Assembly (NCBI GenBank): GCA_016184125.1
Contig: JACPDG010000043.1
Span: 15,882-79,881 of the forward strand
Reading direction: 5' to 3'
DNA length: 64,000 nt
Source of the DNA: Candidatus Rokuibacteriota bacterium
GTDB taxonomy: Bacteria; Methylomirabilota; Methylomirabilia; Rokubacteriales; CSP1-6
Part shown: positions 27,619 through 60,053 of the stretch, piece after piece
How positions within the stretch are numbered: position 1 is the first letter of the stretch
How the letters are laid out: the number at the start of each line of letters is the position of its first letter
The notes under the pieces: model-generated
Database searches by the model: none
What the model saw: only the letters and a program-made list of their open reading frames with translations
What the model was told of the DNA's origin: nothing
Program-made: the position numbers and the translations under genes

Positions 27619-29292
27619 TCACTCCTCCACCGGCATCGTGACAGGTTCCCCGGCCCCGTAGAAGTAAGCGCCGCGTCCCGCCGCACCGCCGACGACGGCG
27701 AGCTGGAAGCACCCGGGGTCCTCGACGACCGGGATCGGGACGTCGGGATGGTCGCGCAGCCAGCCGAGCTCGGGATGCGCCGCAGCCATCGCCTTCGGCT
27801 CCTTGTTGAGCGCCAGCGTGCGGAACGGCACGCGGGCCGCCCGGTACATCGCCTGCTGGATCTCGGCCCGGCCCCAGCCTGCGCGCGCGAAGATCTGCGC
27901 GTGCTCGGGGCAGACGAAGAGCGTGTTCTGTTCCTTCTCCTCCGTCCTGGAGCGCGGATCCGCGCGTCGGCCGATGAGCCAGAGCCCCGTGCCGACCTGC
28001 GCCACGTTCGTCGCCGCCGTCGCGTAGACCTGGACCAGGTCCTCGGGCGCGGTCGAGCGGAAGTCGTAGAGCTCGCACATCCCGTAGGCGAAGTGCACCG
28101 TCACCGTGCTCGCGTCCCGTGCGAAGCCCCGCGTGACGTGGTATGGCTCCCACGGGCTCCCGGCCTCGTTCTCGGCGCAGCAGAGGCTGTACTTGAGCGG
28201 CGAGCCGATCGTGTCCATGTCGGACACGCCGACGTACGTGTGTCCGACGTTCATCATCGTGAGCCGCACGGCGCGCCCGAGCACCGTGTTCGACGCCGAG
28301 GGCGCGCCGGGACCGAGCGCGCACAGGCCCGCATTGAGACGGGCGGCGCGGGCACGCGGGCCGTTGGCGAGCACGAGCGGCGCGTGCGGGCCGGTCGACA
28401 TCGCCTTGTTCCTGAGATACATCTTCGGCTCGGCGAGGCAGCGGACCGCGGCGATGAGCAGCGGCAGGTGCTCCGGACCGCAGCCGGCCATGACCGCGCT
28501 GATCGCGAGCTTCTCGACGGTCGCGACACCGAAACCCGGCTCGAGCACGGCGATGGTCTCGCCGGGCGCCCGCTTCGTCCCGGCGAGCATCGCATCCACG
28601 GCACGGCGCGTCGGCGGCACGATGGGAAAGCCGTCCGACCAGCCGCGCGCCAGGAGCTCGCGCTGCATGCGGTCCAGAGCCTCCAGGACATCGTCTCCCT
28701 CGAACGAGAGCACGTCGGGCAGCACCGGGCACACGGGCTCCGAGCGCTCGACCTCGACCGGTCGCGTCAACCCGGCGACGACCTGCTCGACGGCGCCGTC
28801 GACCATCCGGTGAACGTCTTCGGGACGCTGGTTCGTGAACGGCAGCGGGACGACCGCGAGCGGCAGCCCCGGGAGTCCGAAGCTCGCCGCGCTGCGCTCG
28901 GCGTCGTGGACGAACGTCGCGGACGTGAACAGCACGGTCGGGCGGCCGCGCCGCTCGAGCTCGACCATGTCGTGGGCACCCCACGACGTGCACGAGCCTC
29001 AGTCGGCTGTCGTCCCGACGACCGCGTCGACCTCGGCGGCGATCCGGTCGGCGTCTTCCGGCGTGGCGTGCCGCATGATGAATCCGACCGACCCGGTGTA
29101 CCGGCGGAACGTCGTGTCCGGGAACCGCTCGCGCAGGAGCGCTTCGGTGCGGTCGAGCGCCGCGTCGCCGCCGCCCTTCATGTTCCAGTAGAGCCCGACC
29201 GTGAGGCCACGGAGGTCTCGCGGGCGCGGCGCGGGCTTCACCGAGCGCTCGACGGTCGTGGCCACGGGATTCAGGATCTCGACGCGTGCCAT
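27619..29292 (-). CDS. UGSC-family selenoprotein fused in-frame to a ~450-aa C-terminal domain; in-frame TGA (Sec) at 28999-29001
   Basis: Track ORFs 28999-29331 and 27619-28968 share one frame and are separated only by a TGA. Minus-strand read: ...VVGTTAD-TGA-GGC-TCG-TGC = U-G-S-C. AGGAGG ribosome-binding site before the ATG at 29292. SECIS-like hairpin downstream. Confidence 0.7.
28969..28987 (-). promoter_or_regulatory. bacterial SECIS-like hairpin GUCGUGGG-GUG-CCCACGAC, 11 nt downstream of the UGA
   Basis: 8-bp perfect stem, G/U-containing apical loop, spacing typical of bSECIS. Confidence 0.5.
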
Positions 29293-29302
29293 GCGGACCT
29301 CC

Positions 29303-29378
29303 TTCATGGGGGGACTATCGAAGCCCCCCAATCCCCCCGCGCTCGGAGCCCCCCGGCAAAGCCGTGGCGCTCCTCGAC
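29303..29378 (+). repeat. family A repeat, copy A9
   Basis: TTCATGGGGGGACTATCGAAGCCCCCCAATCCCCCCGCGCTCGGAGCCCCCCGGCAAAGCCGTGGCGCTCCTCGACC. Confidence 0.85.
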
Positions 29379-29408
29379 CACCGCCTTCGGTTCACGGGCT
29401 CTCACCCC

Positions 29409-29484
29409 CTTCATGGGGGGACTATCGAAGCCCCCCAATCCCCCCGCGCTCGCACACGCCCCGGGGAACCCGGGGCGTGGCTCG
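29409..29484 (+). repeat. family A repeat, copy A10 (tandem with A9)
   Basis: TTCATGGGGGGACTATCGAAGCCCCCCAATCCCCCCGCGCTCGCACACGCCCCGGGGAACCCGGGGCGTGGCTCGA. Confidence 0.85.
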
Positions 29485-29485
29485 A

Positions 29486-30685
29486 TTACACCACAGCCTT
29501 CTTCGCCCGGAGCGAAGCGATGTCGGCGTCCGAGTAGCCGAGCTCCGCGAGGACCTCGTCGGTGTGCTCGCCGCGCATCGGCGCGTGCCGGCGGATGTCC
29601 GGGTCGATCTCCGAGAACGACACGGGGAATCCGACGACCGGGATGTCGCCGAGCTTGGGGTGCGCCATCCGGCGGATGACGGCGCGGCCCTGCGTCTGCG
29701 GATCCGACAGCGCCTGGCCGACGCTGTTGACCGGCGTGGCGGGCACGCCCGCATCGTCGAGGAGCTTGATGAGCGCGTCGCGGTCGTACCCCGCGATCGC
29801 GTCGCCGACGAGCTGCTCCAGCTCCGTGCGGTGCTTCACGCGCTCGATGTTGACCGCGAAGCGCGGGTCGTCGGCCATCCACTCGAGCCCGAGCGCCGTG
29901 GCGAGGCGCCGCCACAACCGGTCGTTCGCGCCCGCGATGAAGACCCACTGGCCGTCGGCGCAGCGGAAGTTGCGGTACGGAGACAGGGCCGGGTGCGCGG
30001 AGCCGAGCGCCTGGGGGACTTTTCCGACCAGCAGGTAGCCTTCGGCCTGGAAGTTCATGAGCCCGACGGCGGTCTCGAGCAGCGAGCCGTCCACGCGCTG
30101 GCCGCGGCCCGTCTGCGCGCGGTGGTGCAGCGCGGACACGACGCCGAGCGCGCACAGGATCCCGGTCGTGAGGTCCAGGAACGACACGCCGCACCGCACC
30201 GGTGGACCGCCCGGCTCACCGGTGATCGACATGATCCCGCTGAACGCCTGCATGAGCGCCTCGTACCCGGCACCCGCGGCGCGGGGCCCGGTGCGCCCGA
30301 AGGCCGAGACCGAGCAGTAGATCAACCGCGGGTTCATCGCCGAGAGCGCGTCGTACCCGAGACCGAACTCCTCCATGGTCCCCGTGCGGAAGTTCTCGAT
30401 CAGCACGTCGGCGTCCCGGGCGAGCTTCCGGACGATCTCGACGCCTTCCGGCGTCTTCAGGTCGACCGAGATGCCGCGCTTGTTGCGATTGTTCACGAGG
30501 TACCCCGCCGCCTCGCCGTCCTTGTGGGGCGGCCAGGTGCGGGACTCGTCGCCGACCGTGGGGTCCTCGATCTTGATGACGTCGGCGCCGAGATCGCCGA
30601 GGAGCGCGCCGCAGAACGGGCCGGCGAGGACGCGGGAGCAGTCGATGACGCGGAGACCGGCGAGAGGCGGGCGGTTCGTGGCCAT
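29486..30685 (-). CDS. family III CoA-transferase (CaiB/BaiF/Frc-like)
   Basis: MATNRPPLAGLRVIDCSRVLAGPFCGALLGDLGADVIKIE...; 399 aa. Confidence 0.9.
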   Translation of the reverse strand: MATNRPPLAGLRVIDCSRVLAGPFCGALLGDLGADVIKIEDPTVGDESRTWPPHKDGEAAGYLVNNRNKRGISVDLKTPEGVEIVRKLARDADVLIENFRTGTMEEFGLGYDALSAMNPRLIYCSVSAFGRTGPRAAGAGYEALMQAFSGIMSITGEPGGPPVRCGVSFLDLTTGILCALGVVSALHHRAQTGRGQRVDGSLLETAVGLMNFQAEGYLLVGKVPQALGSAHPALSPYRNFRCADGQWVFIAGANDRLWRRLATALGLEWMADDPRFAVNIERVKHRTELEQLVGDAIAGYDRDALIKLLDDAGVPATPVNSVGQALSDPQTQGRAVIRRMAHPKLGDIPVVGFPVSFSEIDPDIRRHAPMRGEHTDEVLAELGYSDADIASLRAKKAVV

Positions 30686-30721
30686 GGGCGCTACTATAGC
30701 GTTTCCGGTTACTATGAGCAC

Positions 30722-34137
<3,416 letters not shown>

Positions 34138-34138
<1 letters not shown>

Positions 34139-36174
34139 TGCTGACGGGACGCGGCGCCACGCGGCGCGGCAGCTTCCTGATCGCCGTCGGCGTGTGCGCC
34201 CTGATGGGCACGGTGTGGTTCCTCGCGCCGGCGATGCTCACGCAGGCCGACTTCGCGCTGTACGACCAGCATTTCCGCTGGCGCGGCGCCCGGCCGGGTC
34301 ACCCGCAGGTCGCGATCGTCGCCATCGACGAGCCGAGCCTGCGCGCCATCGGGCGATGGCCCTGGCCGCGCACGGTGCTCGCCGAGCTCATCCGGCGCCT
34401 CGACGAGGCGGGCGCGGCGGCGATCGGCGTCGACGTGATCCTGAACGAGCCGGAGCGGAGCGGCGAGCTCGAGGCGGCGACGCGGCTGCGCGAGCGCCTG
34501 CGGGCGGTGGGCGCGCCGGCCGCCGTGCTGCGCGAGGTCGACGCGACGATCCAGGCCGCTGATCACGACCGGATGCTGGCCGACGCGATCGCCGCGAGCG
34601 GCCGCGTCGTCCTTCCGAGCCTGTTCAACGTCAGTATTGAGCCGCCCAAGCAGGCGCCGGAACGCGTTGGCCAGCCGTTCAAGTCCGCGCTCGTGCGGTT
34701 CAAGCAGTACGACGACCGCGGCCTGTTCCCACCGGTCAACGCGGACAGCGTCGGCCTGCCGATCCCACCGCTGCTGGCTGCGGCCCAGGGAGTCGGCCAC
34801 GTCTACATGCTCGCCGACTCGGACGGCACGACGCGGTGGGAGGCGCTCGCCATCGAGTACCGCGGGCACTACTATCCCAGCCTTGCGGTGGAGACGGTGC
34901 GCGTCGCCGCCGGGCTCGAGCCCACCGCCCTGACGCTCGACTTCGGCACCGCGCTCGTGCTCGGCGATCTCGAGATCCCCATCGACGCGCGGGCACGAGT
35001 GCTCATCGGATACGCCGGCCCCGTGCACTCCTTCCCGCACCATTCCGCCGCGGATGTCCTGGCCGGCCGCGTCCCGCCCGAGCGCCTCCGCGATCGCATC
35101 GTGTTCGTCGGCGCGACGGCGGAAGGCACGTACGACCTGCGAGTCACGCCGTTCTCGCCCGTCCTCCCCGGCGTCGAGAAGCACGCGAACGTCGCGGCCA
35201 ACATCCTCGACGGGCGCTTCCTCGTGCGGCCGCCGCTGGTCGAGCTCTTCGAGGTGCTGGCCGCCGTGGCGCTGCCGTTCCTGCTCGCCTGGCTGCTCCC
35301 GCGCCTGCGTCCGATCCCGAGCGTCGGGGTGACGCTCGTCCTCGGCGCCGCGGTCCTCGGCGGGGCGCACCTGGCCTTCCGGCAGGGCCTCTGGCTGCCC
35401 GCGGTCTACCCGGCGGTCGCGATCGCCGTCACGTTCGTCGGCGTGACCGTCTTTCGGTTCTTCACCGAGGAGCGCCAGCGGCTCTGGACGAAGCGCGCGT
35501 TCCAGCAGTACGTCAGCCCCGAGGTCGTCGACCGGATCGTCGAGGATCCCGCCGCGCTCCAGTTCGGGGGCGAGGTGCGGAACCTGACCGTCCTCTTCGT
35601 CGACATCCGCGACTTCACGGGCTTCACCGAGCGGCACGATCCCCACGAGGTCGTGGCGATGCTGCGCGAGCACTTCACGCGCCTCACGAACCGCGTCCTC
35701 GAGGAGGGCGGCACGCTCGACAAGTACATCGGGGACGCGATCATGGCGATCTTCGGTGCGCCGGTCCCGGCCGCGGACCACGCGGAGCGGGCGTGCCGCG
35801 CCGCGTGGAGAATGGTCGAGGAGGCGGAACGCCTGCGAGACAAGTGGCAGGGCGAGGGGCGCGAGCCGTTCCGGATCGGTGTCGGGATCAACACGGGCGA
35901 CATGGTCGTCGGCAACCTCGGCTCCGAGCAGCTCTTCACGTACACCGTCGTCGGCGACGAGGTGAACCTCGGCGCACGGATCGAGACGCTCAACAAGGAG
36001 CACGCGACGACGCGCCCGATCATCATCAGCGAGTCGACGTACGAGGCCGCGCGTAACGCGATCGAGGCGCGGGTGCTCGGGGAGGTCAAGGTGCGCGGCA
36101 AGACGCGGCCCGTCGTGATCTACGAGCTCACCGGTCTTCGGTCGCCGACGCCCGAGCCGCAGGTCCCCGCGTAA
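34138..36174 (+). CDS. CHASE2 sensor domain plus class III adenylate/guanylate cyclase
   Basis: N-terminal CHASE2 (periplasmic) with TM helices, then a cyclase homology domain (VLFVDIRDFTGFTE...GDAIMAIFG...GINTGDMVVGNLGS). ATG overlaps the metH TGA (ATGA). Confidence 0.9.
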
Positions 36175-36180
36175 CGCGCG

Positions 36181-36313
36181 GGGGCGGGGGACGGGGCGGG
36201 GGCCCCTCGGAAATCCGCGCGCGGACCACGGCCGGCGTCCCACAACAGCCGGACTTCGAGGTCGACCTTAGCCCAACGGATTTCCGAGGGGCCCCCGCCC
36301 CGTCCCCCGCCCG
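36181..36313. repeat. TIR-bearing MITE-like element E1 (37-bp terminal inverted repeats GGGGCGGGGGACGGGGCGGGGGCCCCTCGGAAATCCG)
   Basis: Perfect inverted termini flank a ~60-bp core; starts 7 nt after the cyclase stop. Confidence 0.7.
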
Positions 36314-36422
36314 GGCGCTTCCCGCGCACCCGCCGTCATCCGCCCGCCGCGCTGAGTCCGTCCACTCACCGACCGCGACCGGCCGTGTGACGCGCTGGCT
36401 TCGGCAACCCGCGTACTTCCCC

Positions 36423-36576
36423 ACGCGGTTCAGCAACCGCGCTCGGTGGCGTCCACCTCGGTGCTTCGGATTCTTTTTCTCGAAAAGGTCCCCCGCCCCC
36501 GCGGGCGGTTCAGCGGCTCGGCGACGTCAATTCCGCTTCGGATTCGTGATTCTCGAAAGGCCCCCCGGCCCCACGC
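36423..36576 (+). repeat. tandem direct repeat (2 x ~75 bp), units ending CTTCGGATTC...TTCTCGAAA(A)GG(T)CCCCCG(C)CCCC
   Basis: Units at 36423-36503 and 36505-36576 share CGGTTCAGC...GCTTCGGATTC-N-TTCTCGAAAGG-CCCCC blocks. Confidence 0.6.
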
Positions 36577-36692
36577 TCCCGCCGTCAGAAGACCGCCGTG
36601 CGACAAGGTCGCTCCGAATCGGCCAGAACCGACACAGTGGTGCGGTTCGATGTTCGAACTCGACGCTGCGCGCCGCCACGCGTGTTGAGATT

Positions 36693-36820
36693 GGCGGGCG
36701 GCGGGAGGGGACTCCCTCAGAAATCCGTTGGCCTAAGGTTGACCTCGGAGTGCGCGCGTTGTGCGACTCCCGGCGTGGTACGGGCGCGGATTTCTGAGGG
36801 AGTCCCCTCCCGCCGCCCGC
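36693..36820. repeat. TIR-bearing MITE-like element E2 (35-bp TIRs GGCGGGCGGCGGGAGGGGACTCCCTCAGAAATCCG); diverged copy of E1 in opposite orientation
   Basis: Core is ~75% reverse-complementary to the E1 core (shared ACCACGCCGG...CACAAC...GAGGTCAACCTTAGGCCAA); ends 12 nt before the cytochrome c stop. Confidence 0.7.
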
Positions 36821-36831
36821 CGGCCTCGCGC

Positions 36832-37797
36832 TCAGTGGTGGCAGGCGACGCAGTCGAGCGGAGCGTTGCGGTCAGGCTTCGTGTTCTCGCGCCGGTGGCA
36901 GTCCAGGCACCAGCCCATCGTCAAGGGGCGCGGATCCGGTCGCAGACCGACGAGATGGAGAATGTCGCTGGCCAGCTGCGGGCCGACGTCGGCGCCCACG
37001 ACCCGCATCCGCTCGATCGGGCCGTGACACGTCTGGCACTCGACACGCGCCCGCACGTGGGCCTTGTGGGGGAAGTACGTGAACTCCGGCATCTTGAAGA
37101 TCCGGATCCACGGGATCGGCTCCTGCCGCGCCCAGTAGTCGTGGACCTTGCGGATCTCGGGGTTGTCCGTCGCCCCGATGATCTTGTGGCAGCCCATGCA
37201 CCGCTCGACCGACGGCAGCCCCGCGTACTCGGAGCGTCGCGCCTCCGTGTGGCAGTACTGGCAGGCGATGTGGAACGAGCCGGCGTGCACGACGTGACTG
37301 AAGAAGATGGGCTGTCGCGGCGCGTTCGGCGGCGTGACGATCGGCTTGGCCGCGGCCGCCACGAACGGCGGGTCGGCGAGCGTCCGGATGTACCGGATCA
37401 CGCGGCGCACCTGGCCGTCTCCGAGGTACGCGGCGAACGCCGGCATCGTCGGTGCGAGCCCCTCGGCGGTGCCGCCGTTCAGGATCACGTTCGCCAGGAA
37501 CTCGTCCGGCAGCGGATTCATGATGCGGCCGTCGGTCAGATCCGCGGGCTTCGTGGCCAGAGCACCGGCCGAAGGCCCATCGCCGCGACCGCCTTCACCG
37601 TGGCAGGGGAGGCAATACTGCGCGTAGATCGCGCGGTCGGCCGGATCCCGAGCGGCCGGAGGCGCGGCGCTCACGCGCGCGCCGAGCAGACCACCGGCAA
37701 GAACCCCCAGCGCCAGCAGCCCGAGCGCCCACGCGCGTCGGGACGCGACGAACGCGCTACTGCTTGATGAGGTTCCGCCGGCGTTCGAGGTACGCAT
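36832..37797 (-). CDS. multiheme c-type cytochrome (6 CxxCH motifs; monoheme module plus pentaheme NrfB/ActA-like module)
   Basis: CLPCH, CQYCH, CMGCH, CQTCH, CLDCH and CVACH; signal peptide. Confidence 0.85.
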   Translation of the reverse strand: MRTSNAGGTSSSSSAFVASRRAWALGLLALGVLAGGLLGARVSAAPPAARDPADRAIYAQYCLPCHGEGGRGDGPSAGALATKPADLTDGRIMNPLPDEFLANVILNGGTAEGLAPTMPAFAAYLGDGQVRRVIRYIRTLADPPFVAAAAKPIVTPPNAPRQPIFFSHVVHAGSFHIACQYCHTEARRSEYAGLPSVERCMGCHKIIGATDNPEIRKVHDYWARQEPIPWIRIFKMPEFTYFPHKAHVRARVECQTCHGPIERMRVVGADVGPQLASDILHLVGLRPDPRPLTMGWCLDCHRRENTKPDRNAPLDCVACHH

Positions 37798-38866: not shown

Positions 38867-39084
38867 CGAGCCGCGACGCGAATCAGTCGACGAGCGCACC
38901 TGGCCCTCCGTGGGTAACGTCCCTGAGAAGTTCAGGGCACATGAGGTCGAGGGCTCACTATATCTGAATCGATCGCCGTTGTCTCGGCCGGTCCGACGGC
39001 GTATGGTAAGAGATGTGCATGGGCCGGGTGCTGCGCCGTCCGGTCACGAAGGTTAACGCTTTGGCGCAACACGAAGGAGAACGG

Positions 39085-39321
39085 ATGGCTCGGAGTCGTT
39101 GGCGTGAGTACTGGTGCGACGTGGTGTCGGAGGGTGTCGAGATCCGGCTCCGCCGTCCCGGGGGTTTCGGGCAGCCGCGCGGATACTTCGTGCAGTGCAA
39201 CCAGAGCGAGTGTCAGTACGTCGAGGACAACAAGCCGCCATGCCCGCTGCACATCGGGATGTTCAGCGATGAGATCCGCGCGCTCGAGGAGACTCGCTCG
39301 CAGCGCGTCAGCGGCGACTGA
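39085..39321 (+). CDS. small hypothetical Cys-containing protein (78 aa)
   Basis: AAGGAG ribosome-binding site; YWCD...CNQSECQY...CPLH pattern; no family recognised. Confidence 0.4.
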   Translation: MARSRWREYWCDVVSEGVEIRLRRPGGFGQPRGYFVQCNQSECQYVEDNKPPCPLHIGMFSDEIRALEETRSQRVSGD

Positions 39322-39323
39322 GA

Positions 39324-39410
39324 ACATCGGGGGGCCGCGACGGCCCCCCGAACTCCCCCCACGCTCGCACACGGCCCGGCGGAGCCGGGCCGCGGCTCGG
39401 GAACCGGATT
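39324..39410 (+). repeat. family A repeat, copy A11 (diverged)
   Basis: CATCGGGGGGCCGCGACGGCCCCCCGAACTCCCCCCACGCTCGCACACGGCCCGGCGGAGCCGGGCCGCGGCTCGGGAA. Confidence 0.7.
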
Positions 39411-39427
39411 GCTTCACGGGCTCTGAG

Positions 39428-39495
39428 ATCATGGGGGGCCCGAGATGCCCCCCCAACGCTCGCCGGGTCCGGGGTGAACCCGGGCCCGCCTCGAT
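39428..39495 (+). repeat. family A repeat, copy A12
   Basis: ATCATGGGGGGCCCGAGATGCCCCCCCAACGCTCGCCGGGTCCGGGGTGAACCCGGGCCCGCCTCGA; abuts the stop of the downstream minus-strand gene. Confidence 0.75.
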
Positions 39496-39710
39496 CACCG
39501 CTTCTTCGTCGCGTCGTAGATCGTACCAGCCGCCGCACCAACGCCCGTACCGATGAGCGCCCCCTTGCCGGCGCCCGCGCCTGTCCCGGCCCCGATCGCC
39601 GCACCCGCGCCGGCACCGACGGCCGCGCCCGTGAGCGTGCCGCAGGCGGCCGTGACGAGCGCGAGCAGCGTGACGCCGACGATCGGTGCGAGGATTCGCT
39701 TCGTGGCCAT
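39495..39710 (-). CDS. glycine-zipper small lipoprotein
   Basis: LLALVTAAC lipobox followed by GAAVGAGAGAAIGAGTGAGAG glycine-zipper TM-like repeats. Confidence 0.55.
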   Translation of the reverse strand: MATKRILAPIVGVTLLALVTAACGTLTGAAVGAGAGAAIGAGTGAGAGKGALIGTGVGAAAGTIYDATKKR

Positions 39711-39786
39711 CTGAGACCTCCTGTCGCAGGGTTCTGGGAGTCAGACGGCCCGCGACCAGACGCTATTCGGCACCGCGCGCCGCGGC

Positions 39787-41121
39787 TCAGCGCCGGGGCG
39801 GTCGCAGGACCAGCGTCGTCGGCCGCACGAGGTAGCGCTGCGCGACGCGCTGCACGTCAGCGGCGGTGACGTTCTCGACGGCCCGCCGATAGCGTTCGGG
39901 GAAGTCCGCGCCGGCGCCCGCCAGCGCGTAGTACGCGAGGTACCACGCCTGGCGCTCGTTCGTGCGGCGGTCCATCGCGTACCGGCCGAGCAGGTAGCCC
40001 TTCGCGCGCGCGAGCTCGTCGCCGACGCGCTCGGCGGTGATGCGCGCGATCTCGGCGGCCAGCGCCTGCTCCGCCCGCGCGGCGTTCTGCGGCGCGGTCC
40101 CGAGGTAGAGGATCAGCGCGCCCGGCTCGCGCATCGGGTCGTAGTACGCGCTGGCGGTGTACGCGAGACCGCGCTTGTCGCGGAGCTCGACGAAGAGCCG
40201 CCCCGCCATGCCACCGCCGAGGATCGTCGCGAGGACCTTGACGGGTGCGTGGTCGGCGTGATCCATCGCCGGAGCGATCGCTCCGACGAGGATCTGTGTC
40301 TGCTGGGCGGGTTGCTCGACCTCGACCCGGCGCCCGGACGCCGCAGGCGCGGGAATCGCGGGCTCCGTCATCGCCGCGTGCCGGGGCATCCCACCGAAGA
40401 GACGCCGCGCCTCGCTGAGGACCTCCGGCGCCGACACCTGGCCGCTGACCGCGAGCACCATCCGGTCCGGCCGGTAGAAGGCACGGTAGTGCGCGACCAC
40501 GGCGGCATGATCGAATCGCCGCAGCGACTCCGGGGTGCCGAGCGTCGGCAGGGCGTAGGGATGCGCACCGTAGAGCGCGGCGTACAGCTCGTCGAACGCC
40601 CGGGACGCGGCGTTGTCGCGGCGCCGCTGCACGCGACTCAGGATGAACCGCCGCTCGTCCTCCACGTCGTCCGGCGCGAGTTTCGGCTCGAGCGCCAGCT
40701 CGGCCGTCAGCCCGAGCAGGTCGCGCCAGAACCGCGCGAGCGCGGTGCCGCGGATCTCGGAGTAGTCGGTGTCGCCCGACGCCGACATCTTGCCGCCGAG
40801 GGCCGCGATCGTCTCCGCGATGGCGGCGCCGCTGCGCTTCCTCGTGCCCTTGACCATCACCGCGTGCACGAAGTTCGAGAGGCCCGCGGTCTCCGGACGC
40901 TCCCAGCGGGTCCCCATCGCGACGAGGAGCGAGACCGCGACCACGGGCGCGAGCGGATTCTCGCGCACGATGACCCTGAAGCCGTTCGGCAGGCGCTCGC
41001 GCTCCACGCGGCCGGCCTCGCGCGCATCGGCGCCACCTGCTGCGAGCGCGGCGACGATCAGCACCGCGACCAGCAGCATCGCGACCGCCGGCCTCGCGCG
41101 CGTGCCGCGGTGACGGATCAC
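39787..41121 (-). CDS. M16-family peptidase, non-catalytic subunit
   Basis: M16 fold (LSNFVHAVMVKGT) lacking the HxxEH zinc motif; signal peptide. ATGA overlap with the upstream active subunit. Confidence 0.8.
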   Translation of the reverse strand: MIRHRGTRARPAVAMLLVAVLIVAALAAGGADAREAGRVERERLPNGFRVIVRENPLAPVVAVSLLVAMGTRWERPETAGLSNFVHAVMVKGTRKRSGAAIAETIAALGGKMSASGDTDYSEIRGTALARFWRDLLGLTAELALEPKLAPDDVEDERRFILSRVQRRRDNAASRAFDELYAALYGAHPYALPTLGTPESLRRFDHAAVVAHYRAFYRPDRMVLAVSGQVSAPEVLSEARRLFGGMPRHAAMTEPAIPAPAASGRRVEVEQPAQQTQILVGAIAPAMDHADHAPVKVLATILGGGMAGRLFVELRDKRGLAYTASAYYDPMREPGALILYLGTAPQNAARAEQALAAEIARITAERVGDELARAKGYLLGRYAMDRRTNERQAWYLAYYALAGAGADFPERYRRAVENVTAADVQRVAQRYLVRPTTLVLRPPRR

Positions 41122-42485
41122 CGCGGACGCTCCGGCACGAACCGCACGCGCGCGTAACTGTCGTCGCCGAAGTACTTCCGCGCGGCGGCCTGGATCTCGC
41201 TCGCGGTCACCTCACGCAGCCTCGCGAGATACGCGAGCTCCTTCTCGAGCGACCACGCCGTCTCCGCCTGACCGTAGGACCTGGCGAGGCCTTCGGCCGT
41301 CTCGATGTCGAATGCGTAGCTCGACTCCGCCGTGACGATTGCACGCTGGCGCTCGGCCTCGGTCACGCCCTCGGCCGTCACGCGGCGGATCACGTCGAGG
41401 ATCGAGCGCTCCGCGGCCTCGATGTTCTTCGGCTCGAGCCGCGCCGTGACGGTCACGAGCCCGCCCTTCTCCCACGCGCCATAGCCGGACTCGATCGTGT
41501 ACACGAGCCGGTCACGCTCTCGCACCGCCTGGTTCAGGCGCGAGCTCGGAGAGTCGCCGAGGATGTACGTCAGCAGATCGACGGCGAAGAGGTCGTCGCC
41601 TCCGATCGGCGCGGCCTTCCAGCCGAGGCCGAGATACGCCTGCTGCTCGGGGCGGCGCACCTCCGCGCGCGGCGGCGTGGAGAATGGCGCGGCCACTGAC
41701 ACGGGCGGACGCGCGGCGCCGGCGCGAGGCAACCGGCCGAACGTCGCGTCCACCACGGGGCGCACGCGGTCCGGCGCGACGGCGCCGACGATCACCAGCG
41801 TCATGTGCGGCGGAACGTAGTGCTTCCTGTAGTAGCGAGCGAGCGCGGCGCGCGTGAGGGCCTGGATCCTGTCGCGGGTCCCCAGGATCGGCCGGCCGTA
41901 CGGGTGATCGGCGTAGGCCACCTCGTACAGCCGGCGGACGAGGAACTTCTCCGGATCGTCCTGGAGCAGGCGCATCTCCTCGAAGACGACCTGGCGCTCA
42001 CCGTCGATCTCCTCCTGGGGGAAGCTCGCGTTCACGCCGATGTCCGCGAGGAGCTCGACGCCCTCGCGCAGTCGCTCCGCGGGCAGGACGAGGTCGTAGT
42101 GCGTGTAGTCGTACGAGGTGAACGCGTTCGACGTGCCGCCGAAGCCTTCGATCATCCGGTCGATCGAGCCCGGCGGCCGCGTCGCCGTGCCCTTGAAGAG
42201 CATGTGCTCGAGGTAGTGCGAGAGCCCGAGCTCCTCGGGGGCTTCGTCACGCCCTCCGGCGCGGAGCCAGAGCTGGAGCGCGACGACGTCACTGGCCCGA
42301 TGCTCCTGCACGATGAGCACGACGCCGTTCGGGAGCACGTCGCGGCTGGGCGTCGGCACGACGGCCGTCGCACGACCGCCACCCGTCGCACACGCGCCGA
42401 GCGCGACCAGCGCCACGGCGAGCGTGACGATGCGCGACGCACGCAGCCAGGTGGGACGTGGGCGCACGGCGGGCTGGGCCGGCAT
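41118..42485 (-). CDS. M16-family zinc peptidase, catalytic subunit
   Basis: HYLEHMLFKGT (HxxEH) motif; signal peptide MPAQPAVRP...LAVALVALGACA. Confidence 0.85.
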   Translation of the reverse strand: MPAQPAVRPRPTWLRASRIVTLAVALVALGACATGGGRATAVVPTPSRDVLPNGVVLIVQEHRASDVVALQLWLRAGGRDEAPEELGLSHYLEHMLFKGTATRPPGSIDRMIEGFGGTSNAFTSYDYTHYDLVLPAERLREGVELLADIGVNASFPQEEIDGERQVVFEEMRLLQDDPEKFLVRRLYEVAYADHPYGRPILGTRDRIQALTRAALARYYRKHYVPPHMTLVIVGAVAPDRVRPVVDATFGRLPRAGAARPPVSVAAPFSTPPRAEVRRPEQQAYLGLGWKAAPIGGDDLFAVDLLTYILGDSPSSRLNQAVRERDRLVYTIESGYGAWEKGGLVTVTARLEPKNIEAAERSILDVIRRVTAEGVTEAERQRAIVTAESSYAFDIETAEGLARSYGQAETAWSLEKELAYLARLREVTASEIQAAARKYFGDDSYARVRFVPERPR

Positions 42486-42537
42486 GCGCCGTGAGCCTAG
42501 CAGATCTCGCGGCGACACGGAAGCCGTGCAGCTCAGC

Positions 42538-43383
42538 TCAGCGCCCCTGAACGAATCGCGCCCTCGAGGGCCGTCCCGGGTTCCGCGGGTGCGTCCGCGC
42601 ACCCCCCGGGACGGCTCCGAGCGCTGGGGGCCGGGGGAGTCCGAGGGGGGCGTCAGCCCCCTTCGTGCGATGGTCGGGGGCCATGTCGGGGCCCCCCATG
42701 ATCTCAGTTCGAGCGACAATCGACCGCCGCGGCGGTCGATTGTCGCTCGAACTCTCAGACGTCACCCCGGCCCGCGTCCCACGACGGCGCACGCGGAACG
42801 CGCGCACCGCGCCGGCCAGGCGCACGCCGAGCAGCACGGCGAGGATGGCCGCGTACACGTACGGCTCGATGCGCCCGACCTTGGCGAGCCACATGAAGTG
42901 CAGCACGCCCAGCACGGCCGCGACGTACACGATGCGGTGGAGCCGGCGCCATGCCCGCGCGCCGAGACGCTTCACCATCCCGGACGTCGACGTCGCGGCG
43001 AGGAGGACGAGCAGCGCGAGCGCCGAGACGCCGACCGTGATGTACGGCCGCTTCACGATGTCCGCGCCCATCTGCGCCCACGCGAAGAAGTGGTCGAGCA
43101 CGACCCAGACGAGGAAGTGCAGCGACACGTAGAAGAACGCGAACAGCCCGAGGAGGCGGCGGAGGATCAGCGGCCAGCCGATGCCGAGCACGAGACGCAG
43201 CGGTGTGAGGGCGAGGCTCGCGAGCAGCATCCGCATGCCCCAGCGACCCAGCGTGTCGGTGACGAAGTCGATGGGGTTCGCGGTCAGGTCGCCCGTCCAC
43301 GCGCGCCAGGCCAGCAGCGCGAGCGGTACCAGGCAAGCGCCCCAGACCAGGGTCTTCAGCAGGATTCGCCCGCGTCGCGTCAC
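42538..43383 (-). CDS. msrQ: MsrQ (heme-binding membrane subunit of the MsrPQ methionine sulfoxide reductase), with ~70-aa repeat-encoded C-terminal extension
   Basis: Six-TM ferric-reductase-like core (FFYVSLHFLVWVVLD...HRIVYVAAVLGVLHFMWL). The ORF stays open through B2 and A13 to a stop at 42538. Confidence 0.75.
   Translation of the reverse strand: MTRRGRILLKTLVWGACLVPLALLAWRAWTGDLTANPIDFVTDTLGRWGMRMLLASLALTPLRLVLGIGWPLILRRLLGLFAFFYVSLHFLVWVVLDHFFAWAQMGADIVKRPYITVGVSALALLVLLAATSTSGMVKRLGARAWRRLHRIVYVAAVLGVLHFMWLAKVGRIEPYVYAAILAVLLGVRLAGAVRAFRVRRRGTRAGVTSESSSDNRPPRRSIVARTEIMGGPDMAPDHRTKGADAPLGLPRPPALGAVPGGARTHPRNPGRPSRARFVQGR
42560..42702 (-). repeat. family A repeat-derived block A13 (two partial reverse copies including the GGGTGCGTCCGCGCACC module)
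   Basis: CCCGGGTTCCGCGGGTGCGTCCGCGCACCCCCCGGG...GGGGGCCATGTCGGGGCCCCCCATGATCTC. Confidence 0.65.
42707..42754. repeat. family B palindrome, copy B2
   Basis: AGTTCGAGCGACAATCGACCGCC-GC-GGCGGTCGATTGTCGCTCGAACT; carries a compensatory C-G change relative to B1 and B4. Confidence 0.8.
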
Positions 43384-43404
43384 GGCTCAGAGCCCGTAAA
43401 GCAA

Positions 43405-44379
43405 TCAGTAGTTCTTCTTGAGATCCATGCCTGCATAGAGCGAGGCCACCTGGTCCGCGTACCCGTTGAACATCAGCGTCTGCCGGCGGCGAAACTCGCC
43501 GATCCGCCGCTCCGTTGCCTGGCTCCACCGGGGGTGGTCCACCGACGGGTGCACGTTCGAGTAGAAGCCGTACTCCCGGGGTTGCGCCTTCGCCCACGCC
43601 GTCTGCGGCTGCTCGCTCACGAGCCGAATCCTGACGATCGACTTCGCGCTCTTGAAGCCGTACTTCCACGGCACCACGACGCGCACGGGCGCGCCGTTCT
43701 GATTCGGCAACACCTTGCCGTACATGCCGACGGTGAGCAGCGCCAGCGGGTGCATCGCCTCGTCGAGCCGGAGCCCCTCGACGTACGGCCAGTCGAGGCC
43801 CGACATGCTGAAGCCGAAGACCCCCTTCTTCTGCGCCGGGAACTGTTCCGGGTCGAGGAGCGTCTGGAACTCCACGAACTTCGCCTGGCCGGTCGGCGCC
43901 ACGCGCTTCAGGAGAGCGGACAGCGGGTAGCCGATCCACGGGATCACCATCGACCAGGCCTCGACGCAGCGGAGCGCGTACACGCGCTCCTCGAGCGGCG
44001 CCAGCCGGAGCAGCTCCTCGATGTCGAACGTCCCGGGCTTCGCGACGTGTCCCTCGACCACGACCTGCCAGGGCCGCGGCTTCAGCGTGCCGGCGAGCCG
44101 CGCGGGATCTTCCTTTTCGACGCCGAACTCGTAGAAGTTGTTGTACGTCGTCGCGGACTCGATCTTCGTCGGCGAATCGGCATGCCGGTACCTCGGGTTC
44201 GGCGCGGCCGGGAGGGCCGCGAGCTGCGACACGGGCGGCGGCGGACCGGCCTCCGCGCGCCCGGGGAACAGCGCGAGCGCGGCGGCGCCGGCGATCAGCT
44301 CGCGCCGGTTGAGATAGAGCCTCTCGTCCGTGACCTCCGACCATCGGAAGCGCGGCGCCTGGCGAATCAGCATCGACAA
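43405..44379 (-). CDS. msrP: MsrP (molybdopterin-dependent protein-methionine sulfoxide reductase catalytic subunit, YedY-like)
   Basis: Tat-type leader ([14 protein letters not shown]); sulfite-oxidase-fold Mo-binding core (YNNFYEFG...[14 protein letters not shown]). Confidence 0.9.
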
Positions 44380-44402
44380 CCTCCTGCTCTCGTCAGCTTC
44401 TC

Positions 44403-44450
44403 AGTTCGAGCAACCATCGACCGCCGCGGCGGTCGATGGTTGCTCGAGTT
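44403..44450. repeat. family B palindrome, copy B3
   Basis: TTCGAGCAACCATCGACCGCC-GCG-GCGGTCGATGGTTGCTCGAG, with a compensatory CC-GG pair. Lies between the response-regulator stop and the msrP start. Confidence 0.75.
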
Positions 44451-44451
44451 C

Positions 44452-45129
44452 TCACACGGCGAAACGGTAGCCCTGCGCGTGGACCGTCTGGATCCACACG
44501 GGATGATCGGGATCGGTCTCGAGCTTCTTCCGGAGCCTGAGCACGTGCGTGTCGACCGTCCGGGTCGTCGGGAACCGCTCGTACCCCCACACCTCGTCGA
44601 GCAGGCGCTCGCGCGTCAGCACGTCGCCACGGTGCTCGACGAGGTGGACGAGGAGATCGAATTCCTTGCGCGTCATCGCGAGCTCGCGTCCCGCCTTGAA
44701 CACGCGGCGAGCGCGCCGGTGGATCCGCACGTCGCCGAACTCCAGGTCCTGCGACTTCTCGCGCGGACCCGGCCGGCGCAGGACGGCGCGCACCCGCGCC
44801 AGCAGCTCCCGCAGGGAGAACGGCTTCGTGACGTAGTCATCGGCGCCGAGCTCGAGGCCCAGCACCCGGTCCATCTCCTCGCCGCGCGCCGAGAGCATGA
44901 TGACGGGCACCTCGATGCCCTTCTTCCTGAGCTCCCGGCACACGTCCCAGCCGCTCATGACGGGCATCATGATGTCGAGGACGACGAGATCCGGCGCCGC
45001 GCTCGCCGCGAGCGCCAGGGCGTCGGCGCCGTTCGTCGCGGTCAGTGTCTCGTATCCCTCGAAGCGCAGATTGTCCTCGAGGCCCCGCACGATCTCCGGC
45101 TCGTCGTCGACGATGAGGATGCGTGGCAT
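44452..45129 (-). CDS. OmpR-family response regulator
   Basis: MPRILIVDDEPEIV...winged-helix C-terminus (YRFAV). Confidence 0.9.
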   Translation of the reverse strand: MPRILIVDDEPEIVRGLEDNLRFEGYETLTATNGADALALAASAAPDLVVLDIMMPVMSGWDVCRELRKKGIEVPVIMLSARGEEMDRVLGLELGADDYVTKPFSLRELLARVRAVLRRPGPREKSQDLEFGDVRIHRRARRVFKAGRELAMTRKEFDLLVHLVEHRGDVLTRERLLDEVWGYERFPTTRTVDTHVLRLRKKLETDPDHPVWIQTVHAQGYRFAV

Positions 45130-45133
45130 CCGG

Positions 45134-46696
45134 CTACCCGTCGGGCTCGGTGTCATCGGAGGCCGGCACGACCGGCGTCGCGGGGAGCCAGAGCGTGAAG
45201 CGGCTGCCGCGTCCCGGCTCGCTCTTCACGGTCACGCGCCCGCCGTGCGCCTCCGCGACGTGGCGGACCAGCGCCAGGCCGACGCCGCTGCCGCGCCGGC
45301 CCTGCGTGTCGCTGCGTCCCACGCGATAGAACTTCTCGAAGATCCGGGACTGCTCCGCCGGCGCGACGCCGATGCCCTCATCCTCCACGCCGATCGCGAG
45401 ATGGTCGCCGACGATCGCGGCCTCGACGTGCAGCACGCGCCGGTCGGCCGAGTACTTGATCGCGTTGTCCACGAGGTTCGCGAGCGCCTGGCGGACGGCG
45501 TCGGCGTCCATCGTCACCTCGCCGAGCTCGGCCGCGACGCGCACGTCGACCTTGAAGCCGCCCTGCGCCAGCGGGTACGCGAACGCCTCGACGGTCTCCC
45601 GGACGAGCGGCTCCACGACCGTGGGCGCCATGTCGTAGCGCCGCCGCCCGCCCTCGATGCGCGAGAAATCGAGCACGTTGTCGATCAGGCGGGACAGGCG
45701 CTCCGTCTCGCGCGTGATCACGCGATAGTACTCCTGGCGCTGGGTCTCGCTGGTGAGCCGGCCCATCTCGAGCGTCTCGCCGAACATGCGGATCACGGAC
45801 AGCGGCGTCTTGAGGTCGTGCGACACGTTCGCGACGAAGTCGGCCTTGAGGCGGGCCATCTCGGTCTCGCGCCGCATGAGCCGCCACGTCGCCGCGATGC
45901 CCGCGACGAGGATCGCCACGAGCACGCCGAACGCGGCCGTGAAGATCGTGACCTGCCGGCGGATCGCGTCGCGCGGCGACCGCCCGGGCTCGGCGTACAT
46001 CGCGACCCGCCAGCGCGGCAGCTCGTCGCCGAACGCGACCGTGGCCACGGGCTCGGCGCCGGTCACCGCCGTGCGCGCGTACACGGTGCGATCCCGGTGG
46101 TCGAGCACGGCGGCGATCGTCGGCGCTTCCAGCCCGCCGAGCGTCTTCGCGAGGACCTCGCGCCGGAGCGCCTCGACGTTGCGGAAAAGCCCCGCGAGCA
46201 CGGGTGCGCCGTCGCGGAGCCGGAGGACCGCGGCCACGAGCACCCGGTCCCCGACGATGATCTGGCGCCGGCCCCCGCGCTCCCACAGCGCGCTCGGCAC
46301 CTCGGCTCGCAGCGTGCCGAACACGCGGGCGTCGTCGTCCCGCCACGCCCCCGGGTAGAGCAGCGCGCCGCCACGGTCGCACACGTAGAGACGGTCGACG
46401 AGCGGCGAGCCGGCGACCAGCGCGTCGAGCGCGGCCGGGTCGCCGGCCGCGGCCCCCACATGCTGCGCGAGCTGCTGGAACAGGTCGTCCTCGGCGTGCC
46501 GCAGCATCATGACGACCTTCTCGGCCGCCATCGACGCCATGTCGCGCGCCTGCTCGCGAAAGAGCAGCTCCGCGGAGCGCTCCCACTGGCGGAGCGACAC
46601 GTACCCGAGCACCGCCACGATCGCGGCCGGGACGGCGATCGCGAGCAGCGCGAACGTCGAGAATCGCCCGAGCGACGCCGCCATGCGCAGGGTCAT
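45134..46696 (-). CDS. sensor histidine kinase with a periplasmic sensor domain
   Basis: Two TM helices flank a ~270-aa extracytoplasmic region; HisKA (ANVSHDLKTPL) plus HATPase_c. ATGA overlap with the upstream redoxin gene. Confidence 0.85.
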   Translation of the reverse strand: MTLRMAASLGRFSTFALLAIAVPAAIVAVLGYVSLRQWERSAELLFREQARDMASMAAEKVVMMLRHAEDDLFQQLAQHVGAAAGDPAALDALVAGSPLVDRLYVCDRGGALLYPGAWRDDDARVFGTLRAEVPSALWERGGRRQIIVGDRVLVAAVLRLRDGAPVLAGLFRNVEALRREVLAKTLGGLEAPTIAAVLDHRDRTVYARTAVTGAEPVATVAFGDELPRWRVAMYAEPGRSPRDAIRRQVTIFTAAFGVLVAILVAGIAATWRLMRRETEMARLKADFVANVSHDLKTPLSVIRMFGETLEMGRLTSETQRQEYYRVITRETERLSRLIDNVLDFSRIEGGRRRYDMAPTVVEPLVRETVEAFAYPLAQGGFKVDVRVAAELGEVTMDADAVRQALANLVDNAIKYSADRRVLHVEAAIVGDHLAIGVEDEGIGVAPAEQSRIFEKFYRVGRSDTQGRRGSGVGLALVRHVAEAHGGRVTVKSEPGRGSRFTLWLPATPVVPASDDTEPDG

Positions 46697-47217
46697 CCGG
46701 ACTCCGCGAGCAGCGTCGTGATCATCGCTTCGGTGTCGGCGTACGCGCCCTCGCCGACGTGCCGATACCGCACCACGCCCCGCTTGTCGACGAGGACGAG
46801 CGTCGGCCACGCCCAGACGCCGTAGCGCTTCCACACGGTGTGGTCGTTGTCCTGCAGCACCGGGTACGGGATCCCGAGCCGCTGGCGCGCGTCGGCGACC
46901 TTGTCCGCCGGCTTCTCCCAGAAGAACTCCGGCGTGTGCACCCCGATGATCGTCAGGCCTCGGCTCGTGTACCGCTCGTGCCAGCCCCGCAACTGCGGGA
47001 TCACGTTTCGACAGTTGATTCACCCGTATGTCCAGAACTCGAGCAGCACCACGCGCCCGCGCATCGCGGCGAGCGTCATGGGCGGCCCCCCGATCCATGG
47101 CCCGGCGGTCAGCTCGGGCGCGACGGCGCCCGGTCGAATCGTCTCTCCGCCGACCACGCCGGGACCGCTCGCGACCCACACGAGCCCGGCGACGGCGGCC
47201 ATCACGATCAGGCGCAT
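46693..47217 (-). CDS. secreted thioredoxin-fold redoxin (TlpA/AhpC-TSA-like) selenoprotein candidate; in-frame TGA at 47020-47022 gives a U-x-x-C redox motif
   Basis: Track ORFs 47020-47217 and 46693-47004 share one frame. Minus-strand read: ...RVVLLEFWTYG-TGA-INCRNVIPQLRGWHERYTSRGLTIIGVHTPEF... Signal peptide at the N-terminus. Confidence 0.7.
46986..46999 (-). promoter_or_regulatory. SECIS-like hairpin CCCGC-AGUU-GCGGG, 20 nt downstream of the UGA (possibly part of a larger CGUG...CACG structure)
   Basis: Short stem with G/U in the loop; weaker than the other two. Confidence 0.35.
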
Positions 47218-47366
47218 GGCCCCGCGCTCCGCTCACGCATCGTGTCGCTCCTGCCCCTCCGTGCGCCGAGTCGCCGCTGGTCGCGCCCGGCCAAGACGGC
47301 GCCTGCGCGAGCCGCGCATCAGGTCACGGTCGAGCAGCCGACGTCGCGCGATCGTCATTCGCCGGG

Positions 47367-48035
47367 TCATCCCGCCACGCCGCTCGTCGTCATCGCGCGC
47401 AGGTGTTCGACGAGCATGCGCAACCGATCCGGCGCGGTGCGCCGCAGCGCCTCGACCCGTGACGCGAGCGCGTCGGTCGTCCGAGCGAGATTCCTCGCCA
47501 CCGACTCCGGTGTGCCGAACGTCGCTCCGAGCGATCCCGGATCGACCCGGCTCGTGTAGGCGATGAGCGCGCCGTCGCCAAGCGGCGTGACTCGGAGCGC
47601 GCCCTCCAGCCGCCGCGCGTATCGAGCGGTCAGCAGCGCCCACCGCGCCACCCAGCCGCCGCTCTCGCGCGTAACCGTCAGGGTCACCGTGTAGCGCTCG
47701 TTCGGCCCGGCGATCTCGTACTCGTAGAAGACCCGGAACACGTCGGGCGCCTCGCGTCGGAGCACGCGGCTGACCACCAGGTCAGGAACCCACTCCCGCT
47801 GGCGGGCGACGTCGGCGTAGAGCGCCATGACCTCCGCCGGCGTCGCCGCCGTGCGCCGGTACGCGATGATCTCCGGCCATGGGAAGCCGGGCACCGCCCG
47901 GCGCTCGATCACCGTCTCGCCTCGTTCGACCCGGTGCCGGACGTCGGCGTCGAGCATCGCGTCGGTGTCGGCGCTCGACGCGCCCGCACCCGTCGCCATG
48001 ACGGCGACGAGCGCGAGCGCAGCGAGCGCGTGGTG
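47367..48035 (-). CDS. SRPBCC-superfamily (polyketide cyclase/START-like) protein
   Basis: ...FPWPEIIAYRRTAATPAEVMALYADVARQREWVPDLVVSRVL...YEYEIAGPNERYTVTLTV... Start uncertain (TTG at 48033 or an internal ATG). Confidence 0.55.
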   Translation of the reverse strand, partial: HHALAALALVAVMATGAGASSADTDAMLDADVRHRVERGETVIERRAVPGFPWPEIIAYRRTAATPAEVMALYADVARQREWVPDLVVSRVLRREAPDVFRVFYEYEIAGPNERYTVTLTVTRESGGWVARWALLTARYARRLEGALRVTPLGDGALIAYTSRVDPGSLGATFGTPESVARNLARTTDALASRVEALRRTAPDRLRMLVEHLRAMTTSGVAG

Positions 48036-48048
48036 GAGCAAGACGGCC

Positions 48049-48579
48049 TCAGCTCGCGAATCCCTGCGGGGCGAGCTGGAACGCCTTCGCGAACTTGCTC
48101 GCGAAGGTCTGGTACCCCACGATGAACGTGAGCTCGAGGATCTCCGCCTCCGAGAAGTGCTCGCGGACCCTCGCGTAGCACGCGTCCGACACGTCGCGGT
48201 CGTCCCGCACGATCTCGGTCGCGAACGACAGGGCCGCCCGCTCGCGCTCGGCGAACGCCTCGCTCGTCTCGAACGCGTCGAGCGCGGCGAGCTTCTCGAC
48301 CGGGACACCGGCCTTCACGCCGACGGCGTGACGGATGTCCATTCAGTACGCGGCCCGGTAGAGGCTCGCGACGTGCAGCTGGAGCATCGCGCGGAGCTCG
48401 CGGTCGATCCTGCCGAACCACTCGATCGAGCCCCAGAGCCCGCCGATGCCGAGCATCAGCGGCACGCGGTGGGCCATGATCTTCTCGGGTGTCGGCACGG
48501 CGCCGAAGAGCCGCTCGCCCACCCTGTAGAACGCCCTCACGGCCAGGCCCGGTCGGTCGATCTCGGAGATGCGCTGCAT
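48049..48579 (-). CDS. AhpD-like / carboxymuconolactone decarboxylase (CMD) family selenoprotein candidate; in-frame TGA at 48343-48345
   Basis: Track ORFs 48343-48579 and 48049-48342 are contiguous in one frame. Read: ...LHVASLYRAAY-TGA-MDIRHAVG... aligns with the CMD redox motif (second Cys of CxxC replaced by U, His four residues downstream). C-terminal FSEAEILELTFIVGYQTF is typical of the CMD family. Confidence 0.7.
48316..48330 (-). promoter_or_regulatory. SECIS-like hairpin CACGCC-GUC-GGCGUG, 12 nt downstream of the UGA
   Basis: Perfect 6-bp stem, GUC loop. Confidence 0.45.
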
Positions 48580-49667: not shown

Positions 49668-49704
49668 GCGAGCCGCCGCTCGGTCCCGTCAGCCGGCACG
49701 CGCG

Positions 49705-60031: not shown

Positions 60032-60053
60032 GGGCGGACCTCCCGTGTGACGG

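Follow-up and report, generated by a model that had tools for sequence, protein, structure and literature searches.

Three probable selenoprotein genes, each interrupted by one in-frame UGA and annotated as fragments, in a Rokuibacteriota contig

Introduction

Three genes of the minus strand, here named A, B and C, are very probably genuine selenoprotein genes (probability of about 0.93, judged from sequence comparison): one in-frame UGA in each would be read as selenocysteine (Sec). They are found in a stretch of 64,000 nucleotides from Candidatus Rokuibacteriota bacterium (assembly GCA_016184125.1, contig JACPDG010000043.1, positions 15,882 to 79,881), called the window hereafter. The three UGAs are conserved as sense positions, Sec/cysteine (Cys) pairs exist, and the hairpins located downstream of the UGAs are conserved and partly covarying. 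Sec as the inserted residue, the binding of the hairpins by SelB and the roles of the proteins in the cell are predictions. All positions are those of the window. Coordinates of the three genes, their Sec codons and their hairpins are given in Table 1.

Interrupted reading frames

The GC content of the window is 69-74%, and long spurious open reading frames (ORFs) are plentiful. Real frames were picked by codon-position composition: high GC content at third codon positions (GC3) and low GC content at second codon positions (GC2). In A, B and C, both coding-type composition and protein conservation run on past the TGA, of which there is one per interrupted gene. An earlier reading of the sequence (the original prediction) had described each gene as an artefactually split pair of ORFs. 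The ORF list does contain these same-frame pairs: 110 + 449 aa for A, 65 + 103 aa for B and 78 + 97 aa for C. It had also warned of mis-annotation, and this has occurred for all three genes: the GenBank record ('Candidatus Rokubacteria bacterium', 90,250-bp contig, locus tags HYU51_...) carries A, B and C as fragments, which are exact matches (Table 1).

TGAs of the whole window were screened by composition (GC3 >= 0.85 and GC2 <= 0.62 within 60 codons, on both sides). Four TGAs pass this screen across the 64 kb: the sites of A, B and C and the TGA at 54506-54508. The latter was rejected as a Sec site: it is an ordinary stop that follows a ThiS/MoaD-like C-terminal GG, and the next gene encodes a formate-tetrahydrofolate ligase. 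The TGA at 50848 was also rejected: it ends an amidase remnant, and its in-frame continuation is not coding-like. TGA is the commonest stop in the window (28 of the 43 coding-like segments end with TGA); UGA is therefore not reassigned genome-wide.

Families of the proteins and conservation of the UGA codons

Gene A encodes a protein of the UGSC family, as found from its Pfam score and its motif. It matches PF24696 with 126.8 bits (threshold 25), residues 10-181 being aligned on positions 1-171 of the 172 positions of the model, across the TGA. The motif is D-U-G-S-C-T-S-W, and the UGA is the U of UGSC. The start codon is uncertain (ATG 29307, ATG 29292 or TTG 29331). One genome per GTDB species was scanned for orthologues: 44 loci were found, 43 of them covering the site. 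In 41 of these 43 loci the frame contains a single stop, a TGA located at the same position of the motif; the other two, both from cultured Xanthobacter strains, have TGC (Cys). The TGA-bearing loci belong to Rokubacteria/Methylomirabilota, Chloroflexi, Dehalococcoidia, Nitrospinota, Tectomicrobia, Desulfobacteraceae and others, with identity down to 42%. The Cys-type motif DCGSCTSW is found in five database representatives. The best 120 database homologues are all calls of ~448 aa (438-451 aa) that start just past the UGA.

Gene B encodes a member of the AhpC-TSA/redoxin group (PF00578, 67.3 bits, threshold 26; PF08534, 48.9 bits, threshold 26.6), with a hydrophobic, signal-like N-terminal segment. 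It scores below the NCBIfam equivalog cut-offs of ResA (55.7 vs 170), DsbE (39.3 vs 123) and TlpA (32.3 vs 230). In its motif, FWTYG-U-I-N-C, UxxC replaces CxxC and the UGA corresponds to the first CxxC position of the thioredoxin fold. Eight orthologous loci were found, all among the 80 loci related to C described below: six have TGA and two have TGT at the site. Among the 120 closest protein homologues, 99 have Cys (FWTYG-C-xNC); a further 14 were called as proteins of ~103-112 aa, cut short at the UGA.

Gene C encodes a protein related to carboxymuconolactone decarboxylase (CMD) and AhpD; its ATG is preceded, 6 nt upstream, by AGGAGG. The PF02627 score is marginal (23.9 bits, threshold 23); this score and the catalytic Cys/Sec followed by His place it in the CMD/AhpD group. 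The motif is A-A-Y-U-M-D-I-R-H: the His lies five residues past the Sec, and the first Cys of CxxC/CxxU is replaced by Ala or Ser. In alignments, the Sec corresponds to the second Cys of CAYC in PA0269 of Pseudomonas (2ijc/2o4d) and to the single Cys of AMYC in the debrominase Bmp8. The best NCBIfam match is NF053654, YciW-related (seleno)protein (106 bits for a cut-off of 310, E = 1.8e-30, 159 of 179 positions). A metagenome scan found 80 homologous loci (62-80% identity), all 80 with TGA at the site. In several of them, the codon that follows the TGA is ACG or GTG instead of ATG; the downstream half of C is therefore not separately initiated.

The original prediction of three UGA-recoded redox genes is borne out by this retention of the TGA. 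It had also placed each UGA at a redox-active Cys position, in families where Cys and Sec exchange. This agrees with TGC in A, with TGT and the 99 Cys homologues for B and, for C, with distant relatives.

Hairpins downstream of the UGA codons

The constraints applied are those of bSECISearch for bacterial selenocysteine insertion sequences (bSECIS), as summarised in PMC13188914: an apical loop of 3-9 nt with a G in the first two loop positions, then G or U; an upper stem of 4-16 bp; a UGA-to-loop spacing of 16-37 nt; a minimum free energy (MFE) of at most -7.5 kcal/mol. The hairpins of A, B and C satisfy all four, as expected from the original prediction of a local hairpin shortly downstream of each UGA. 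In A, a lower stem (GCUCG/CGAGC) is set off from the core by an internal loop. With our implementation, 9.6% of 4387 in-frame positions in the coding regions of the window satisfy the same constraints; among 26 further TGAs closing coding-like segments, one does so, and weakly. A scan of the window with Rfam at the gathering threshold gave no match to SECIS or to any other family.

By whole-segment folding energy, A ranks in the best 2% of the background (45-nt MFE, -25.3 kcal/mol), C ranks in the best 10% and B stands at the 70th percentile. Whole-segment MFE z-scores were rejected as a SECIS test, being too weak in a genome with 71% GC, and were replaced by a test with the consensus model and by comparative counts. 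In the consensus test, the hairpin of B is in the best 5.5% of the background. Taken on its own, the local hairpin of B is weak evidence, and the hairpin argument needed comparative data.

These data are as follows. The 7-bp core of A does not vary among 40 distinct Sec-type orthologues, and both Cys-type orthologues lack it. Within the stem codons, the synonymous choice is fixed (Ser TCG, 100%; Thr ACG, 95%; His CAC, 100%), the other conserved codons of the gene being at 50-88%. In C, the 6-bp core is paired at 99.7% in 49 distinct sequences. Its pair 17-29 covaries (AU, 26; GC, 18; GU, 5; mismatches, 0), and the peptide changes along with it (His/Arg and Val/Ala). The observed score was not reached in any of 500 shuffles, and slid controls pair at 16-54%. 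The comparative data for B are weighed in the next section.

Evidence that weighs against Sec and alternative explanations

Several results weigh against the reading of A, B and C as selenoprotein genes. (i) Curated models: the best NCBIfam match of A is the UGSC family (seleno)protein NF041046, with 101.9 bits, below the cut-off of 125. C misses the cut-off of NF053654 and, as judged from this score, is a relative of that family and not an equivalog member. (ii) Cys forms: no close Cys orthologue of C was found; Cys is present only in the distant PA0269 and Bmp8. (iii) Hairpins: by the MFE over 63 nt, the hairpin of B is no better than shuffles and is not exceptional. Its stem is kept in nine of nine sequences, including the two Cys-type orthologues. 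The stems of A and C lie within strongly conserved peptide segments, so that nucleotide conservation is partly a protein constraint. (iv) Machinery: ARAGORN found no tRNA gene in the 64-kb window, hence no selC, and no protein of the SelA, SelB or SelD families was found among the ~60 window ORFs scanned against Pfam. With the negative Rfam scan, this agrees with the original prediction that selA, selB, selD and selC lie outside the window.

The loop above the stem of B differs between the two forms. The seven Sec forms have AGUU (once AGUG), in which Leu is encoded by the rare UUG, and the two Cys forms have AGCU. This difference is suggestive, within a small sample of nine sequences.

Among the alternatives, the one that survives best, though improbable, is that UGA is recoded to a residue other than Sec: either Cys, through a SelB-dependent tRNA(ReC) or SelC*-type tRNA, or, by near-cognate read-through, Trp or Gly. 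For genomes with Sec-type genes, the literature (PMC13582414) discusses tRNA(ReC) variants with which UGA is decoded as Cys. Translations from the Joint Genome Institute (JGI) have W at the site in C homologues: two apparently full-length homologues (P0121 and P0122) have Trp where C has Sec. Genetic code 4 or 25 was most likely applied to the TGA by the gene caller on these short contigs, which would make the Trp a mis-annotation of a second type. This choice of code accounts best for the W, and TGA is the main stop here. Moreover, Sec makes catalytic sense at all three sites, a SECIS-type hairpin accompanies each of them, and the families are curated as (seleno)proteins.

Even less probable is that the TGAs are true stops and that each locus encodes two polypeptides (split gene), the second of which would begin at an ATG or GTG close by. 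An ATG does follow the TGA immediately in C and 10 codons on in A, and gene callers yield exactly these pairs. Against this, the residues between the TGA and the next start are highly conserved and include the partner Cys of UxxC (GSCTSWGxHD in A, INCRN in B); the ACG (Thr) found after the TGA in several C orthologues is no start codon; Cys-type orthologues are single continuous ORFs; and a split exactly at the catalytic residue would destroy the active site.

The least probable explanation is that the genes are pseudogenes, with TGAs that arose as errors of sequencing or assembly or as recent nonsense mutations. The window does come from a metagenome-assembled contig and GenBank has each gene as separate short ORFs. 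However, independent orthologous loci, which come from many studies, have TGA at the same codon (41/43 for A, 80/80 for C and 6/8 for B), and both sides are under purifying selection. In addition, Logan assemblies of three runs (SRR12113428, SRR12113433 and SRR12113418) match the window at 100% identity over B and C. True decay looks different: the amidase remnant of the window keeps 85 of 445 profile positions and is followed by non-coding-like text. Assembly errors, which the original prediction had named as what would overturn it, pseudogenes and split genes are regarded as excluded because of the TGA and Cys codons of the orthologues and the three identical run-level assemblies.

Proposed mechanism

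Reading of the UGAs of A, B and C as Sec would follow the standard bacterial mechanism. The signal would be the hairpin within the coding sequence, with its apical loop 18-25 nt past the UGA and G-U in a small loop. It would bind SelB carrying GTP and Sec-tRNA(Sec), and SelB, competing with release factor 2, would bring Sec to the UGA. In each protein, Sec would replace the attacking redox Cys: in the UxxC of the UGSC domain (A), in the UxxC of a putatively exported TlpA/ResA-type thiol-disulfide reductase (B) and at the CMD/AhpD-type catalytic position (C).

Comparison with known families

UGSC family (PF24696, NF041046; 'UGSC-containing protein' of the Olavius symbiont and Global Ocean Sampling (GOS) studies): A shares U-G-S-C with Sec first and a full-length domain match. 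In this family too, Sec forms outnumber Cys forms; the GOS counts are 255 Sec and 21 Cys.

Thioredoxin-fold UxxC selenoproteins (entries of the prokaryotic selenoprotein inventory: Trx-like, Prx-like, thiol-disulfide isomerase-like cd02966, redoxin PF08534): B shares the fold, UxxC, a TlpA/ResA-like N-terminal segment of export type and abundant Cys homologues. It differs in having no curated equivalog and in its motif, W-T-Y-G-U-I-N-C, which is not WAxxUGC or one of the UGC variants.

AhpD-like and CMD-like selenoproteins (TIGR01926, PF02627, NF041047, NF041238) and NF053654: C shares the CMD fold family, Sec at the second Cys of CxxC and a His at +5. The listed families have CxxU, whereas position -3 of C is Ala or Ser (A/SxxU), so that Sec stands alone like the single Cys of Bmp8. 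C also differs in having nothing but Sec forms among its 80 close homologues. In metagenomes, Prx-like and AhpD-like selenoprotein genes have already been reported as co-located.

bSECIS consensus: the hairpins of A, B and C share all constraints and differ in matching no Rfam family; their binding by SelB is predicted.

Sec machinery and lineage

Related loci and three copies of the B-C region of the window (127 fetched loci, 637 kb) were searched with ARAGORN: no tRNA-Sec was found, only tRNA-Leu. The presence of Sec machinery in this genome is nevertheless expected from the maintenance of the UGAs across many genomes and from the literature on the phylum. Deng et al. 2026, as cited in PMC13188914, report 63 predicted selenoproteins, more than counted to date in any other bacterium, for a Methylomirabilota metagenome-assembled genome (MAG); it belongs to the same phylum as the genome that carries A, B and C. 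Sec-type group 4 hydrogenases are reported in Methylomirabilota (PMC13582414).

In the flanks of the related loci, four further candidates were found, each with a TGA in a redox motif and a bSECIS-like hairpin: a candidate AhpD-like protein (NGCEY-U-TRAH) encoded directly after an A orthologue, a candidate second S-U-GSC protein, and two candidate Prx/Trx-like proteins (W-U-PYC; Prx, peroxiredoxin; Trx, thioredoxin) adjoining C orthologues. The in-frame TGAs of these candidates are located at 4927 in locus L015, at 189 in L045, at 2046, 4345 and 2280 in L069, L070 and L072, respectively, and at 2857 in L125. An above-average selenoproteome, as the original prediction had suggested, would agree with the 63-selenoprotein report and with these extra candidates.

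Genomic context

B and C belong to a co-directional string: C, a gene 7 nt further on encoding an SRPBCC secreted protein, B, a histidine kinase, an OmpR-type regulator, MsrP/MsrQ-like genes and two M16 peptidases. The stop of B overlaps the ATG of the histidine kinase gene (ATGA). The original prediction spoke of three independent genes. There are indeed three, but B and C are ~0.8 kb apart in one gene string and a B homologue is found within the fetched DNA of 8 of the 80 related C loci: B and C are linked, and the three cases are not fully independent. Gene A stands alone: a MetH gene is divergent from it, and it lies upstream of a nucleotidyl transferase gene.

Table 1. Genes A, B and C, their Sec codons, hairpins and GenBank entries, and the gene between C and B
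Feature	Positions	Strand	Description
Gene A	27619-29307	-	562 aa, Sec at residue 103; UGSC-family domain and ~380-aa C-terminal domain
Sec codon of gene A (UGA)	28999-29001	-	U103; coordinates verified
Hairpin of A	28958-28998	-	core GUCGUGGG-GUG-CCCACGAC at 28969-28987; spacing 19 nt, upper stem 8 bp, -12.5 kcal/mol
Gene A in GenBank			MBI2216999.1, 449 aa, 'hypothetical protein'
Gene B	46693-47217	-	174 aa, Sec at residue 66; TlpA/ResA/redoxin-like thiol-disulfide oxidoreductase
Sec codon of gene B (UGA)	47020-47022	-	U66; coordinates verified
Hairpin of B	46977-47005	-	core UCCCGC-AGUU-GCGGGG at 46985-47000; spacing 25 nt, stem 6 bp, -9.3 kcal/mol
Gene B in GenBank			MBI2217015.1 (65 aa) and MBI2217014.1 (103 aa, 'redoxin domain-containing')
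SRPBCC/polyketide-cyclase-like secreted protein	47367-48041	-	PF10604; between C and B, not recoded
Gene C	48049-48579	-	176 aa, Sec at residue 79; carboxymuconolactone-decarboxylase/AhpD-like
Sec codon of gene C (UGA)	48343-48345	-	U79; coordinates verified
Hairpin of C	48303-48340	-	core UCACGCC-GUC-GGCGUGA at 48315-48331; spacing 18 nt, stem 7 bp, -9.9 kcal/mol
Gene C in GenBank			MBI2217018.1 (78 aa) and MBI2217017.1 (97 aa, 'carboxymuconolactone decarboxylase family')

The genes directly downstream of B (42538-46690, minus strand) encode the histidine kinase, the OmpR-type regulator and the MsrP/MsrQ-like proteins (a molybdopterin oxidoreductase and a ferric-reductase-type membrane protein). 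This content suggests an envelope oxidative-damage repair cluster.

At 29486-30760 (plus strand), the MetH frame has a ~400-aa N-terminal extension that matches no Pfam or NCBIfam model and is kept upstream of MetH in 18 related loci (51-64% identity). This may be either a domain without a name or a distinct gene that shares the frame. A CHASE2-adenylate/guanylate cyclase gene (34150-36174, plus strand) is concealed in a spurious ORF of 1548 aa that runs on from the MetH region in another frame; this gene was detected solely by the GC frame plot.

Elsewhere in the window, the amidase remnant (50848-51129, minus strand) appears as an N-terminal fragment of 93 aa that covers PF01425 positions 1-85 of 445 and ends in TGA. 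It is followed by the genes of class I fumarate hydratase, alpha (49705-50847) then beta (48969-49688). A gene encoding a metallo-beta-lactamase with two rhodanese domains, of the persulfide-dioxygenase/sulfurtransferase type, is found at 58658-60058 (minus strand). Sec forms exist in some rhodanese families, but this gene lacks an in-frame TGA.

Domain fused to UGSC in gene A

Residues ~184-562 of A match no Pfam or NCBIfam model. An exhaustive profile-free search (E <= 0.001) found this C-terminal domain in 4476 clusters at 50% identity. Its architectures are: standalone proteins of ~350 aa; tandem proteins of ~715 aa; Cys-type UGSC fusions of ~560 aa (DCGSCTSW); and many calls of ~450 aa that start just past the UGA. 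A nearly invariant Cys is found in the motif AVMAGC. It is conceivable, though on balance somewhat doubtful, that A represents a large unnamed selenoenzyme family in which a UGSC Sec domain is joined to a domain of ~350-380 aa, with a fold that has no solved or Pfam-modelled relative. A 'UGSC/Unknown_1' fusion was already recorded in the GOS study (2008); its Unknown_1 may be the same domain as the C-terminal one of A.

Significance

The families of A, B and C are catalogued as selenoprotein families and the mechanism is known. The three genes leave knowledge of Sec decoding unchanged; what they provide is a correct identification of new, mis-annotated members, which adds little that is new. 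They are a clean, controlled example of standard gene calling breaking selenoprotein genes. In public protein collections, over 100 orthologues of gene A are truncated in this way, as is a large part of the 4476-cluster family.

The genes place the contig in a lineage now reported to have the largest bacterial selenoproteomes. They also give three examples of SECIS from this lineage, one of them covarying, which could seed a lineage-specific search. If A does represent an unnamed selenoenzyme family, a widespread redox enzyme of unknown chemistry would be concealed by gene-calling artefacts, most of its Sec-type members being truncated at the UGA in public collections.

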